63,806 nucleotides of DNA, filler included, from Stramenopiles sp. TOSAG23-6 (GCA_900128565.1; 18 parts of 18 records of this genome joined end to end with filler, not necessarily neighbours in it); one strand, 5' to 3'. Positions 3,561-63,806 are shown, numbered from the whole stretch's first letter. Numbers and translations are program-made. Notes: generated from the sequence alone by a model not told the origin.

Positions 3561-5693
3561 TTAGGTCCAGTACTCGACGTGGAAGTTCCACCATTGGAAT
3601 TTGATTCTGTTGTTGTGACCGAATCAAAAATATTGAAAAGATCATCGACAGATTCACCATCATCTTTATTTCCATCCACTGCAGCAGATTCACTTTCTAC
3701 TGCAAAAAGATTACTTGTAGAAGGCGGATGACCCAGCATACTATCACGTTTCTTCGAATCCCCCTGAGACGCATCGTCATCGGAATCAGTATCCGATGCT
3801 GTAGGGTTAGTACCAAACCCGAAGGGATCATCCTCGTCTAATTCAGTTTTAGAGTCACCATTTTCGGACATTGCTTCTACTGCCTTGGAATTTGCAAGCA
3901 ACCAATCGATAGCACGTCCGGTATCACCATCTGCATTATCTAATGCTATTCCAGCAGCTTTTGCAGAAAATCCCATGTCGAGGAATTGTTTTAATTGATC
4001 TTTTGTAGGCTTACACTTTGAACCTCCTTGAGGGATGTGGAAACTCTGCTTTGATGTCAAATTTCCTTCATCCATATCCATTAGCAATTTCGGAATTTGT
4101 TTATTGAGTTCTTCTTTACTTCGTGGTAATTGATTAAAGTCCTGGCCTCCTATATATAGTGTATATAAATGCTTATCATCAGTTCTTCGTCTGGAACCCC
4201 TTCGAGCTTCTTTATCATTTTCTTGAATTACAAGACGAAGTTCAACTTTTCGACAAGCAAAGAAATGCTCAAAATAAAAACGTCCTGCTCGAATCTGTGA
4301 TTTATTTAACATGTATTTTGGAAAAATATTTCAAAAAAAAAAAACTTAAATTTGTTAGGTACGTACAAAATTTCGTACGAAAAAAAATCGAATTTGAAAA
4401 AAAATAAAACATACACTTCGCGGCGATCGAGATATACTTTAATATTTCGTTTCACAGATACACTTGCTTCAACTATATGTCGTTGATCAGAATTTGCAAA
4501 CTTAAATTCCCATGCTGCAAGTTGTTTGTTGCTTTTAATAAATTTTCCAACATCCAATTTGCGAGAGCGAAGGGCAATAGCAGCAGGGACACCGCAGATA
4601 CGACTTGTGCCTTGGTCAGGGCGAGGTAACTTTGCAAATGCTATATTATCTATTTGAAGGTCAGCTGCAAAACGGTCCTGTGAGGCGGCAGCAATAATGT
4701 ATTGTGAAAAAATATTTTTTTTAAAGTAAAATTTGTTAGGTACAACATTTTTATAAAAAAAAAAATACTTCAAATTAATATTGAAAACGTACATAAGAAT
4801 ACGGTGATTTGGAGAGCGTGTCTGAAATGCGACTCGCTGACGAGTGACTGCGTGATATTCTTTACGTTCTTCGATGAGAATGCCATCGAACCAAACACGG
4901 CGGACACGACTTTGTAAAGAATATTTAATCACTACACTATATATTGTGAAAAATATTTTTTTTTCTCGTAAAAAAAATTCATTAGGTATAAAATTTCGTA
5001 TGAAAAAGAAAAATGAAATTCATAATGAAAATGTACGTGTTCACGTAACGGAGTTTCGTCACGAAGAATAAAGCGCCAATTTACAGCTTGTTTAGATTCC
5101 TTGGAAAAAGAACCAATCTTTTCTTTCGTACAGGATACTGCGAAAGCTGGTCCAACGATAGAATTTCTGCGTCCCTTTTTTGAAGGGACATCACGTACTG
5201 GAAATTTCATACCTGGTTTCATGTCGGGAGGAACTCTCACCCTCATTCGAGTTCCACTAGGAGCAGTTGCAAATATCAAATCACCGCCTCTGTTTCCCTG
5301 TGGGCATTCCACGACAAAGAATTCGTTATCCTTTGTTAACTTTACCTCACCAATATCGCTATCTGGACTAACCAGGATTGAGACTGACATTCCAGGGTGG
5401 TGTGTAGGGGGACACTTGACATCAACTTGACGATTTCCGCTTCCCACGCGGACACCAAAAAATTCATTAGGTTTGACACCATCTGGAATGGTTACTACAA
5501 ATTCACGCATGTCTTTTGTTCTCACACGAGCGTCGTCGGAGTCACGTTTCACCAAAATAGGTAAGTCCATTCCTCCGCTATGTGTTCGCGGGCATGTCAC
5601 AGACAATTTACGACCATTCTTTTTTACTGTAAAAGTTTGGTGTGCTTTAATGCCCTCTGGAATCTTAACTGTCATCTCAGTTACATCCGACAT
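3561..5693 (-). CDS. Protein with three N-terminal VP.G..PG..F.V-type repeats, two FAIM-like modules and a UBA domain (4 exons, 3' partial)
   Basis: Three repeats of the type TVKIPEG..F.V..VTCP. W.F.....H.V...S...R.V..D modules. UBA: LKQFLDMGFSAKAAGIALDNADGDTGRAIDWLL. Introns 4939-5036, 4697-4792 and 4311-4414, all GT-AT and in frame. Confidence 0.65.
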
Positions 5694-6078
5694 GGTTTAT
5701 TTCGGTCCTTTGTAAAGCAATTCCGTATGTTTAAAAATCAGCTCAATCCCGAGTCTATTTTTAGTAAGATAGATCGACAATTCGAACTTGAACTTCGAAG
5801 ATTTCAATTAGGTAGGAAAAAATGGTACAAACAACAGCGCCAGATTTATTATAACAGCGGGACATCAAAAAAACATCAAAGATTTGAAAATTTCAAATTG
5901 AAATTGATGTCAACAAATTTCAAATTAGAAAATTCCGAATTTAATTTCAAATTCCGAATTTGTGGTCAAATTGATCAGATGACATCATCAGGTCTCAGAG
6001 GTATTACTATTACCTATATAAAATCCAGCCAAATAGAAACTCAAAGCAAGACAACAACATTGGGACATTTTCATCCTG

Positions 6079-6965
6079 ATGACACCGTCACCTGTTTTCT
6101 TGGGATTTGATTCATCTACACAGTCATTGAAAGTAACTGCGGTTGATATCAAGTTAAAAGTGGTGTACAACAACTCTGTCAATTACGCCAAAGATTTACC
6201 AGAGTTCCGTACGGATAATGGAGTTCATTATGGTGCGGGAGGCAAAGTAACCTCTCCAACTCTCCTATGGGTATGTGCGTTTGATTTAATTCTTGCGCGT
6301 ATGCAATCCGATGGTTTTGACTTTTCTTCTGTGCTTGCAATTTCTGGAAGTGGTCAACAGCATGGCAGTGTATTTTGGAGGAAAGGGTCGTCTGCCATAT
6401 TGAAATTACTTGACCCAGCAAATGCTATAGCACCGCAGCTTGGAGCTTGTTTCGCTCTAAATAATTCTCCAGTTTGGATGGATTCGTCAACGGGGAAATA
6501 TTGTCGTTTTCTTGAAGAAACTCTCGGGGGAGCTTTGAAAACAGCTAAAATTACTGGTTCTAGAGCCTACGATCGATTCACGGGTAATCAAATTGCAAAA
6601 GTCGCTCTAGAACAGCCTGAAGCCTACCAGAATTGTGAACGTATTTCTCTAGTTAGCTCATGTTTTCCATGTATATTAACAGGAAAATATGTACCAATTG
6701 ATTGGAGTGATGCGAGTGGTATGAATTTGATGGATATAAATACTAGGCAATGGTCGAAAGAGTGCTTGTCAGCTTGTAGTTCTTCAATATCGGGTGTATG
6801 TTTTATATGAATTTCTAATTTAAGTTTTTTTTTTGGTTTACAGACACGTCTTGGAAACTCTCCAATACCATCTGATACTGTTCTTGGCAACATTCAACAG
6901 TATTTTGTAGCTAGGTATGGATTTCGTAATACTTGTAAAATAGTCACTTGGTCTGGAGATAATCC
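6079..6965 (+). CDS. XYLB: Xylulose kinase (FGGY family), 3' partial
   Basis: FLGFDSSTQSLK, ISGSGQQHGSVFW, PVWMDSST, TGSRAYDRFTGNQI, SDASGMNLMDI, then LG...YFVARYGF...SGDNP after a short intron (about 6796-6843). Confidence 0.92.
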
Positions 6966-61388: not shown

Positions 61389-62137
61389 TGTATTCAACAG
61401 TGATATGTAGAGTAATTATATCATTAATGATTTGTTAATTATGTACAGAATAGCATTTTTAGCTTCATTGTACTCTTTTGTACTATAATCAAAATTGTAA
61501 TACGTTGTAGAATAAAACGAAGTTTGAGAAATAGGAATTTTAGAAAAACGTTGAAAAATTGTAACTGTTAAATTTTTTTTCTAAAAAAAGCAGGTTTGTC
61601 GGATATATGTTGTACTATATTCTGTATAATTTTGAATATTTTGAATATTTTTGATTACATACAAAAACCGTACAAAAACCGACGTCGCATTTTTTTTTTC
61701 CGTTACATAACGTGTATATGCTTACGTCTGTACGACGTAAAAAGACCGGTAATATCTTTTTTCGTTTATCTATTACAATAGTCTAACTTATCACGTGCAA
61801 AAGAAATATAAAATACAATATATATATTATATATATCATCGTATATCATGCAGCAGCAGCATAGTGGTTTACATAAAACAATTGTATATACTATTGATGC
61901 TACCAAAACAAATTATTATACTTCATTTATTCTTATATAATAATATTGATATCACCAAAACAATAAGCATATTGATCATATTTATGATTTATTCTCTTCA
62001 GTGTTCTACGTATATTTGGATTCCGTACCATTTTTTGGTACTTAACAAAAAATATTATATTTTGAATCATTTGAATCTTTCAACCATATCGATGTACATA
62101 CATTTCCAAACCTACAAGAGGATTTGTTTTACTTGTA

Positions 62138-63723
62138 TTAACCATATCGATGTACATACATTTCCAAACCTACAAGAGGATTTGAAGTTCGTTTTTGATA
62201 TGGATTGTCTATTCTTTTACGTGCTTGTTGAGCTCTTCTTTTTCTTTGTCTTTTCCATAACGATCTCATTCGTTCACTATTTCTATTTTTTTGATTTTTT
62301 TCAGATGTTGTACTTTCATTATGATGTTTTCGTGTATTTCGTATAGTAGACCGAATCATCCGTTTTTTCATGGTTGTATTAGGGTTAGGATTACGTTGTT
62401 GTATATTTGTTGTATTTAAATCATCACGATAATATGTATGTGATGATGTTGGATGTCTAATTTGTCCATACGATGATACTTGTCCAATAGTATTTGATCC
62501 AATAGTGTTTGATCCAATATTTGAGACTCGATACCCTTTCATTTTAAATTGTGGATTTTTTTGTTTTCTTCCTAACCCTACTATTGCTGATGTTTGTCGT
62601 ATATTTCGTGTATTTCGTGTATTTCTATAATTTTGTGACATTTGAGAATTTCCATAATTTTGTGTAGTTCCATAATTTTGAGAATTTCGTACAATAGGAT
62701 TTAGGGTTAGGGTTTCCATGGATACATTTGAGTTTTGTACAGGTCGAAATGTTGATGATGATGATGAGATTTGAAGATGTCGATTTTGTTGTTGTTGAGA
62801 TCGACGATTTCGTGTCATATTACGAAAATTAGGGTTAGGGTTATAATCAGCAGTGTAACGAATGGTAGGGTTAGGATTATACATATATTGTGAATTTATA
62901 TTTACAAATGGTAGGGTTAGGGTTAGGTGCAAAATGGCTATATTTGTTTTTTTTTACATTCAAATCAAATCAAATAGTACAATGTGTATTGTACAAATAT
63001 TGTAAAAAAAGTAAAAAAAAGTAAAAAAAAGTAAAAAAAGTAGAAAAAGTAAAAAAATTTCTGAATTTAATTTTTTTTTTTTCAAAAAAAAAAAAAAAAA
63101 AAAAAAAAAATTATACATTCTTGGTATTCTTGGTAAACAATACATACATATCTCCTAATAAAGGATCATTTTGTCGATATCGAGATGATCTAGAGCTTTT
63201 TATTGAAGATGATATTGCTCTAGGGTTAGGGTTGTCATCAAAACGTGATTGTTGTCCTCGATATTGTTGTTGTTGTTTTAATTGGTGTTGGTATCGTTGA
63301 TATTTTTGATATTCTTGATATTGTTGTTGTTGACGACGTTGTTGTCGACTTCGAGTGACATATTGCTGTTGTCGTTGTAACTGCTGTTGCTGTTGTTCTA
63401 GTTGTAACTGTTGTTGTAACTGTTGTTGCTGTTGTTCTAGTTGTAACTGTTGTTGTAACTGCTGTTGCTGTTGTTCTAGTTGTAACTGTTGTTGTCGTTG
63501 CTTTCGTTGCTTTCGTTGTTTTCGTTGTTGCTTTTGAGCTTTTCGTTCATCATTAAGTGTTTTATCATGATGTAATAATGTCTCTATACCACCACTTCTT
63601 ATACTGTCACTACTACTGTTTTTTCTAACATCTTTGAGTGTATTTTGTTTTGTTTCCTGAATTTCTTTAGGATTAGATTTTTCATGTGTATTCGTGGTAC
63701 TAGGTGGTCCAAATGCAAAAGGA
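62138..63723 (-). CDS. Low-complexity Q/N/R-rich protein, last exons
   Basis: Acceptor CCAAAATACAT at about 63724, (QQQLQ)n repeats, intron about 62939-63137, and many NPNP motifs. Confidence 0.5.
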
Positions 63724-63806
63724 ATGTATTTTGGAAAAATATTTTAAAATTTTTTTACCAAAAAAAAAAAAATTGTTAGGTACAAAATTTCGTACGAAAA
63801 AAAAAT

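Follow-up and report, generated by a model that had tools for sequence, protein, structure and literature searches.

Introners, as described from Micromonas, Aureococcus, fungi and dinoflagellates, are short introns that occur as many near-identical copies in sense orientation within unrelated genes and that bring their own splice signals with them. According to the portion of the literature drawn on here, some introners rely on a duplicated target to supply one of the two splice sites and are bordered by a flanking direct repeat and short inverted ends, and in Micromonas it is the AG that the duplicated target supplies (PMC11282704). An intron family that resembles introners in its copies, orientation and splice signals, and may also resemble them in its flanks and ends, was recognized in a 63,806-base stretch of DNA from Stramenopiles sp. 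TOSAG23-6 (GCA_900128565.1), which is referred to below as the window. It differs from the described introners in that its 3′ end is AT in 18 of 22 complete introns, and not AG, and in that its flanking direct repeat measures 2 nt. Essentially all visible introns are probably copies, or decayed derivatives, of one Introner-like family of ~91-116 nt that comprises at least two linked subtypes and is predicted to be cut as GT-AT and, less often, as GT-AA or GT-AG.

A transposon-like origin, a non-AG end and a 3′ end tied to a flanking exonic repeat are also features of the introns of Fritillaria borealis that derive from miniature inverted-repeat transposable elements (MITEs); these non-canonical introns are, in the parts of the reports cited, spliced by a modified major spliceosome, and they mostly start with AG, end with AC or AT and are very diverse, whereas the family in the window combines GTAYGT with a strong CTAAC (PMC11282704, PMC13326754). 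Furthermore, Fritillaria is a tunicate, whereas the host of the window is a stramenopile protist. Amoebophrya (Syndiniales), itself a marine protist, likewise carries multi-copy introners with short boundary direct repeats, inverted ends and boundaries rendered ambiguous by the repeats, although the boundaries there, as far as the cited portion of the report goes, are highly variable, the repeats measure 3-5 nt and U1 small nuclear RNA (snRNA) is reported missing (PMC11282704). The family in the window, in contrast, has uniform boundaries and a 5′ splice site that fits pairing with U1 and U6. Introns of yeast follow the consensus GTATGT ... TACTAAC ... YAG, and they resemble those described here in their almost invariant GTAYGT 5′ site and CTAAC branch site; however, yeast spacers are unrelated between introns and the 3′ site is YAG, whereas in the window the spacers are shared and the 3′ site is YAT.

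Introner surveys, to the extent covered by the part of the survey cited, accept only GT, GC, GA or AT as 5′ ends and AG or AC as 3′ ends, or ask for RNA support; such surveys screen annotated introns with accepted dinucleotides (PMC12130899) and would overlook a GT..AT family where the annotation of an assembly is absent or faulty. Full-text searches, in which supplementary files were not covered, returned no paper linking introners or non-canonical splicing with the marine stramenopile (MAST) lineages. Neither 'splic' nor 'canonical' occurs in the main text of a paper on single-cell genomes from several MAST lineages (PMC5778133), MAST-4 is reported to have few introns, at 0.36-0.56 per gene (PMC5269757), and the words 'intron' and 'splice' do not occur in the paper on a MAST-3 culture genome (PMC12614181). 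Judged from the DNA, what appears to be new here is the combination of canonical 5′ and branch sites with a uniform non-AG 3′ end, a 2-nt flanking repeat and a stramenopile flagellate host.

The window consists of 19 pieces, mostly of ~3.45 kb and sorted by length, which are linked by N44-TTAATTAATTAA-N44 (e.g., at 7020-7119 and 10579-10678) and by one 162-N run. Three pieces duplicate others: 24901-28352 is the same as 28453-31904, 32005-35455 is the same as 35556-39006, and 21347-24800 matches 56833-60269 at 99.4%, leaving 16 unique contigs once the three duplicates are removed. A preceding sequence-only reading had assigned the introns to one span, 4311-63806; this span is not one locus, but it is a chain of unrelated contigs holding the same intron family. 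The DNA is eukaryotic and AT-rich (G+C content of 22-45% per 2 kb), the closest named relatives of an intron-free PRP16/DHX38 open reading frame (ORF) are oomycetes, at 63-65% identity, two database gene models (one of them matching the DUF2817 product) bear a source label that includes 'MAST', and the public runs that share the window's words are seawater metatranscriptomes only, with small shares. The host is therefore treated here as a marine heterotrophic stramenopile, with an assembly made from little material. An Rfam scan of the window returned rRNAs only, with no snRNA genes.

The family was delineated by a 25-nt module, TTTCRTACGAAATTTTGTACCTAAC, which with up to 3 mismatches matches the window 30 times against 0.00 expected (27 times without the three matches in duplicate contigs), and by a 13-nt core, TTTTGTACCTAAC, which with at most 1 mismatch matches 41 times against 0.24 expected, 34 of these matches remaining after removal of duplicates and N-containing copies. 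A profile built from 11 full copies gave 91 hits in the window at E values up to 10; with the duplicate contigs set aside, 44 of these have E<0.01. Both counts bear out the claim that the module is repeated far beyond chance. Full-length alignments of copies from unrelated genes (DUF2817, DDX27-like, TTLL, ABC transporter, C2/EF-hand, and FGGY) likewise make visible the common order of GTAYGTTTT, branch site and 3′ block that had been proposed: an exonic AT is followed by GTAYGTTTT at the start of the intron, a spacer, a T-run, YRTAVK-AAATTTTGTACCTAAC, an A/T run and finally AAATATTTTTYMMAATAYAT, which closes the intron.

Lengths, ends and reading frames were counted in a curated set of 22 complete introns, all of which lie inside genes and on the coding strand. 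The 19 single copies measure 91-116 nt, close to the range of 90-105 nt first suggested, and the three longer introns, of 146, 194 and 198 nt, comprise one copy whose 5′ part is long and two that are doubled. The 5′ site reads GTATGT in nine introns and GTACGT in seven, followed by TTT. A CTAAY motif is present in 20 introns and in 18 of them ends 32-43 nt ahead of the final base, compared with the 33-42 nt measured initially on CTAAC in four introns; the two remaining distances, 6 and 7, reflect fortuitous CTAA-like words close to the 3′ end, and some members carry no CTAAC at all. The last 24 intron bases read AAATATTTTTYMMAATAYAN, and the introns not ending in AT end in AG (three) or AA (one). 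Exons end in AT directly before the GT in 16 of 22 cases, compared with 75 of 830 GT sites (9%) inside ORFs (p 8.7e-13). The GTAYGT 5′ site and the CTAAC branch site are almost invariant, and the positions of the classical signals are the most conserved. Members that lack CTAAC or the 3′ block nevertheless exist (e.g., 50939-50832 and 15177-15274).

To place the splice boundaries, the lengths of flanking ORFs at the proposed 3′ cut were compared with those at 3′ shifts of -2 to +2 for the 22 introns, the proposed cuts lying before GT at the 5′ end and after the last base of AAYAN at the 3′ end. In 16 of 22 introns, the proposed 3′ cut gave longer frame-compatible flanking ORFs than any shifted cut, and compatible ORFs were longer on the sense than on the antisense strand in 19 of 22. 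An AG occurs between the branch site and the 3′ end in 6 of the 18 AT-ending introns and is bypassed under these boundaries; in intron 5 of the DUF2817 gene, for instance, a TAG stands 34 nt before the 3′ end, and its use would shift the frame. The three AG-ending members keep the same register as the AT-ending ones.

The DUF2817 gene provides the most detailed view of these boundaries. Taking out its five introns as GT..AN yields one ORF of 415 aa, with 3′ ends of AA, AT, AT, AT and AT. Against seven homologues chosen from a search of 1.84 billion representatives, junctions 1, 4 and 5 are gap-free within 9 residues (junction 4, QEFGTVDG/IFVARAL, being collinear with the homologues), junction 3 is collinear except for a 1-residue insertion 6 residues downstream, and junction 2 falls in a variable stretch of the alignment. 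The Pfam DUF2817 match runs to profile position 175 in exon 1, and residue 2 of exon 2 corresponds to position 178, so that position 176 is left for the junction codon. This codon, T/AT, encodes Tyr, which is also found in six of the seven homologues, the seventh having His; an AT..AC cut shifted by 2 nt would give Asn, which none of the seven contains. The best non-self match to the gene is 52% identical. A database gene model is 100% identical to the DUF2817 product of the window, and the public model P0121, of 305 aa, has C-I in place of YHKQS at intron 1 (skipping five residues), reads into intron 2 and stops. A search of the Protein Data Bank (PDB) gave no match for exon 1 and chance matches only for exon 2, and Pfam gave no or only weak matches for exons 3-6.

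Comparable evidence comes from other genes. In the DDX27-like gene, whose exon has a best non-self match of 59% identity, Helicase_C profile positions 6-82 correspond to residues 46-122 of a 123-residue exon and positions 84-110 to residues 1-27 of the next; across 18906-19004 the profile coordinates thus run 82, 83, 84, leaving no gap at the GT..AT junction. The exon before 46793 in the C2/EF-hand gene ends with ...EMIKMVDLDG, which aligns to its last residue with calmodulin ...EMIREADIDG, and the shifted AT..AC cut destroys the Gly codon of DLDG in this EF-hand. The exon that follows 12564 starts with MHLTNYSLNKHN, a TTLL7 motif. PDB searches returned no match for the exon after the EF-hand intron or for the short TTLL exon, and Pfam returned no or only weak matches for the C2 exons. 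In terms of reading frame and collinearity with homologous proteins, these data support removal as GT..A(T/A/G); the loss of the terminal AG that the sequence-only reading had assumed is in line with them, since both the frame tests and the homologues place the 3′ cut after A-T or A-A.

Several properties of the introns point to descent from a common element. Spacers of no known signal role are common to introns of unrelated genes, and introns that are alike in the 5′ spacer tend to be alike in the 3′ segment as well (Mantel r 0.335, a value equalled in 6 of 5000 permutations). Two subtypes are linked over ~60 nt, TTTATTTTTTTTCAAATTTGA occurring with TTTTGAAATATTTTTCCAAAAT and TTTCATNATGAATTT with AAAAAATATTTTTCACAAT. 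Tandem or double copies with AT at each joint are found at 44158-43946, 50553-50356 and 12371-12564; in the first of these, copy 2 (44065-43946) has its branch site 15 nt before ..TAGAT, lacks the 3′ block and is in frame. The 16 unique contigs have 32 ends, and at least 8 of these ends lie within a copy, as would be expected if an assembler breaks at a high-copy repeat. Two RNA runs, X1 and X4, both of the same seawater sample, gave 1269 and 1216 contigs, respectively, at ≥90% likeness to one window contig; they accumulate over the introns, where summed depths reach the thousands, whereas exon-only bins have depths of 0-48. The RNA contigs carry the consensus letter where the local copy deviates, as at position 50208 (15545 of a depth of 15576 in X1).

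The consensus holds the two overlapping palindromes described initially, TTTCGTACGAAA and GTACGAAATTTTGTAC, but they are broken in many copies. The exact 12-mer palindrome TTTCGTACGAAA is present in 5 of 34 module copies (copies picked by the 13-nt core only), and variants with CATACG, TATAGT, TGTACG or TGTATG are commoner than the exact form. For palindrome 1, 75% of cells are paired versus 64.6% when shuffled, but its two variable pairs fail to form in 11 and 12, respectively, of the 26 distinct rows; for palindrome 2, the figures are 71.2% versus 70.3%, a value reached by 85 of 500 shuffles, with three pairs broken in 11-15 of 26 rows. RNAalifold assigned 0 consensus pairs to 17 full copies. 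Single-sequence folds of nine copies had z-scores of -3.1, -1.7 and -1.4, with the other six between -0.9 and +0.2 (one of nine below -2), and some folds include a 4-bp GUAU/AUAC stem between the intron ends. Variation in the module resembles CpG decay, with CGTACG giving CATACG, TGTACG or TGTATG and no compensation, and variation at the 5′ site, from GTACGT to GTATGT or GTACAT, is of the same kind. We take the palindromes to belong to the master sequence and not to form an RNA structure that the copies maintain, although they may have a role in the DNA while the family spreads.

The copies carry the complete signals of the major, U2-type spliceosome, with GTAYGTTTT at the 5′ site, (GTA)CCTAAC at the branch site, TATTTTTY as pyrimidine block and MAATAYAT at the 3′ end. 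Under the mechanism proposed here, new copies would insert beside an AT and leave AT on both sides, the flanking AT being either duplicated in the manner of a target site or preferred as a proto-splice site. The AT downstream of the copy would then become the 3′ splice-site dinucleotide, in the way that a duplicated target gives the AG of Micromonas introners. The host spliceosome may read Y-A at positions -3/-2 behind the TATTTTTY block with any base in last position, bypassing upstream AGs, and the palindromes, present in the master copy, would be lost from its descendants mainly by decay at CpG sites.

The likeness among the introns could also stem from a pure extended splice code without mobility, in which long signals constrain all introns to one layout and likeness does not mean descent. 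This explanation is considered unlikely. It would accommodate the layout into which nearly every intron of the window fits, the strict strand orientation with no intergenic or antisense copies seen, and the coincidence of the most conserved positions with those of the classical signals, but not the signal-free spacers that are shared across unrelated genes and linked to the 3′ subtype, the tandem and partial internal duplications, or module variation that is CpG-decay-like and not compensatory. Moreover, 50939-50832, without CTAAC, and 44065-43946, without the 3′ block, must still be removed to satisfy frame and homology. Since such members sit where an intron is needed, the module as an obligatory recognition signal is not supported, and, between the Introner/MITE and the extended signal that had been put forward as alternatives, the linked subtypes, tandems, contig breaks and consensus RNA contigs favor the repeat family. 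Spread of this family through RNA, by reverse splicing at sites ending in AT followed by reverse transcription and recombination, with the upstream AT as a proto-splice site, is a doubtful proposition. Such a route is consistent with copies that are all sense to transcription and nowhere seen to be intergenic, with exact boundaries, including a tandem copy that begins right after the terminal AT of the first, and with inverted termini so short that the end stem is of 4 bp only. However, to our knowledge, large-scale action of reverse-splicing spread has never been shown in any eukaryote, copies at contig ends and in low-complexity stretches are incompletely placed, and the same window data are expected from DNA insertion combined with selection against antisense copies. 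Strict sense orientation in itself fits selection against unspliceable antisense insertions and spread through RNA equally well.

Two further alternatives concern how the elements are removed. Boundaries of the form AT..AC (U12-type or rare U2-type), in which each cut lies 2 nt further upstream, would in most cases leave the mRNA unchanged, because AT precedes GT (in 16 of 22 introns) and ends most introns, which close with ..ACAT or ..ATAT. They are nonetheless very improbable: Asn would replace the conserved Tyr at DUF2817 junction 1, the Gly of DLDG would be lost in the EF-hand, and the AG- and AA-ending copies keep the register of the others. U12-type introns have the 5′ site RTATCCTT and the branch motif TCCTTAAC ~10-15 nt from the 3′ end, whereas the 5′ consensus here is GTAYGTTTT and 32-43 nt separate the branch site from the 3′ end. 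Excision at the DNA level, as of the internal eliminated sequences of ciliates, would be in keeping with elements of ~95 nt that interrupt coding sequence, have AT on both sides and end in ATGTAT..ATACAT, yet it is hardly credible. Excision of this kind is expected to be strand-independent, whereas sense ORF support is better in 19 of 22 introns, with no clearly antisense copy among them. In addition, the 5′ splice site and the branch site of the copies are of textbook form, the elements persist in some contigs from RNA libraries, and nuclear dualism is not known in stramenopile flagellates.

Against the splicing of a mobile GT-AT family, several observations have to be set. For one window contig, none of the 15 listed of 35 RNA joints lies at a predicted junction, and exon depth in RNA over the same contig is very low; some RNA-library contigs run unspliced across intron-exon borders, and homologue searches found no spliced mRNA-derived protein of a close relative. 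In a profile scan of the window, hits were sense to genes, and no antisense or clearly intergenic copy was found in ~54 kb. No transposase or autonomous partner was seen in the window, the terminal inverted repeat is only 4-8 nt long (GTAT(G)TTTT / AAAATAC), and the flanking AT repeat, at only 2 nt, is equally explained by splice-site preference. The layout shared by nearly all introns is also predicted by a strict lineage-specific splice code. Finally, a scan of a viral contig collection with the module pattern gave 0 matches, and JGI metagenome contigs gave 12 single pattern matches, which by profile are core-only look-alikes, with no full element.

The positions of the introns, partial copies and rRNA features are collected in Table 1.

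Table 1. Members of the intron family, related introns and rRNA features in the window (positions counted from its first base; the labels a-type and b-type refer to copies of the family)
Feature	Position	Strand	Length (nt)	Ends	Phase	Remarks
DUF2817-family gene	50075..51910	-				six exons; 415-aa product only after GT..AN removal
DUF2817 intron 1	51111..51201	-	91	GT..AA	1	a-type copy
DUF2817 intron 2	50832..50939	-	108	GT..AT	1	degenerate, without CTAAC
DUF2817 intron 3	50652..50742	-	91	GT..AT	0	a-type
DUF2817 intron 4	50356..50553	-	198			two b-type copies in tandem, AT at joint, inner GT lost
DUF2817 intron 5	50165..50267	-	103	GT..AT	0	
DDX27-like DEAD-box intron	18439..18536	+	98	GT..AT	0	215- and 128-codon frames join only at shift 0
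DDX27-like intron in Helicase_C domain	18906..19004	+	99	GT..AT	0	
C2/EF-hand intron	46693..46793	-	101	GT..AT	0	5′ flank GT; frames 952 + 145 codons
Partial b-type copy, C2/EF-hand gene	46206..46269	-				cut by contig end
TTLL intron	12371..12564	+	194	GT..AT		one copy plus internal repeat of its 3′ two-thirds (1.7 copies)
TTLL intron	12684..12829	+	146	GTAGGT..ACAG		family branch and 3′ blocks
Degenerate upstream TTLL copy	12230..12305	+				3′ part of intron
Intron, gene with UBA-like domain	4311..4414	-	104	GT..AT	2	5′ flank GT; frames 201 + 249 codons, shift 0 only
Intron, UBA-like-domain gene	4697..4792	-	96	GT..AT	2	
Intron, UBA-like-domain gene	4939..5036	-	98	GTACAT..AT	0	branch CCTAAT
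Partial b-type copy, xylulokinase-like (FGGY) gene	6966..7019	+				at contig end
FGGY short intron	6796..6843	+	48	GT..AG		without module
Intron, PqiA-domain gene	32138..32253	+	116	GTAAGT..AT		splits start codon AT/G
ABC-transporter intron	53366..53463	+	98	GTATGC..AG		b-type; weak frame support
ABC-transporter intron	53539..53633	+	95	GT..AT	2	frames 79 + 262 codons
3′ half of copy at contig end	28300..28353	-				immediately upstream of PRP16/DHX38 ORF
3′ part of copy	15640..15704	+		AATAG (3′)		just before ankyrin-repeat ORF
Weak degenerate copy	2091..2143	+				downstream of zf-CW ORF, E 0.0003
Tandem pair without exon between	43946..44158	-				AT-copy 1-AT-copy 2-AT; 119-codon frames join only at shift 0
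Intron	43549..43646	-	98	GT..AT	2	
Intron	43277..43378	-	102	GT..AT	1	
Intron	13391..13493	-	103	GT..AT	1	
Two overlapping partial copies	13548..13682	-				likely one composite intron
Copy	14033..14117	-				5′ end cut by contig end
Copy	10699..10744	-				3′ end cut by contig end
Intron	14656..14751	+	96	GTGAGT..AT		in-frame AAG 6 nt upstream as alternative acceptor
b-type derivative	15177..15274	+	98	GT..AG		without CTAAC; weak frame support
Intron with two branch modules	21534..21704	-	171	GT..AT	0	internal duplication
Copy	21358..21436	-				3′ end cut by contig end
Copy	24906..24990	-				cut by contig end
Copy	60392..60465	-				cut by contig end
Two partial copies	60579..60717	-				composite intron
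3′ two-thirds of copy	63725..63804	-				window end
Partial rDNA unit	39107-42556					18S from ~model position 540, ITS1, 5.8S, ITS2, first ~1450 positions of 28S
5S rRNA gene	20088-20206	-				separate, adjoins DDX27-like gene

The first ~39 nt of the short FGGY intron at 6796-6843 match the copy at 46269, in another gene, with ~4 differences. Assignment of the gene at 3563-5696 as Tubby-like was rejected, Pfam giving a UBA-like domain only. Further weak or degenerate hits to the family lie at 53303-53337, 3194-3263 and 15013-15081 (E 0.0007-0.03). The only profile hit outside an intron (E 5.7e-6) is a 28-nt inverted repeat at 49776-49835, ~240 nt downstream of the DUF2817 stop codon, whose arms are 93% complementary and separated by 2 nt (a T-run with GTACCAAATTCCGTA and TAAGGAATTTGGTA with an A-run); it is similar to the GTAC-AAATT core of the module and may represent either a foldback element related to the family or a hairpin of the terminator type. 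At 13245-13340 (+) and 13149-13466 (-), the plus-strand TTLL gene ends at a GTATGTTTTATTTT 5′ site, and the same stretch read on the minus strand resembles a b-type intron (GTAAGTTATTTATGATGAATTTCAAA ... AAAACATACAT), a minus-strand ORF overlapping the TTLL exon in an apparently convergent arrangement of genes. The PRP16/DHX38 ORF at 25828-28350 (-) is intron-free over its 841 codons and encodes a helicase that proofreads the second step of splicing.

Other observations concern the contigs themselves. In its last ~1.1 kb, the contig at 21347-24800 (and likewise that at 56833-60269) additionally has a 100% match to itself in the opposite orientation; inverted duplications such as this one result from chimeras of whole-genome amplification, and the center of this palindrome, near 24207-24296, gives rise to symmetric weak profile matches. 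Low-complexity GGTACC / GTACC(T)G units ("gggtaccgggtaccc...") occupy 7420-7590, adjoining a polycystin-channel ORF at 7764-10259 (-), and the word GTACC is common to this stretch and the intron module. Telomere-type words like CCTAACCCTA(A/C)C occur twice within ~70 nt at 62900-62960 (-), in an ORF-rich region, and are probably a chance occurrence or a degenerate repeat.

Taken at an evenly balanced level of confidence, the analysis suggests that, in a widespread group of marine heterotrophic stramenopiles, the intron complement may have been replaced or created by one mobile family that leaves AT, with a major spliceosome adapted to Y-A-T and ignoring upstream AGs. If true, this would be the third independent lineage, after Fritillaria and Amoebophrya, to break the GT-AG rule genome-wide, and, unlike in those two, the change would be confined to recognition of the 3′ splice site, with textbook 5′ and branch sites kept. 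If GT-AT removal is confirmed by RNA, the organism would offer a naturally occurring exemption from the AG rule that affects the last intron base alone, the 5′ site and branch site being canonical, and thereby a clean case for the second-step readers of the 3′ G (U2AF35, Prp8, Slu7, Prp18, Prp22, and the G1-G-1 contact). With respect to intron origin, it would add a case of a spreading family whose 3′ splice site appears to be derived from an insertion scar, and it would show that introner surveys based on annotated GT/AG introns can miss whole families. Gene models of the organism would be wrong at the introns of the family, as with P0121, which has 305 aa instead of 415 aa, and gene counts, orthologue sets and metatranscriptome mapping of uncultured ocean grazers may be biased.

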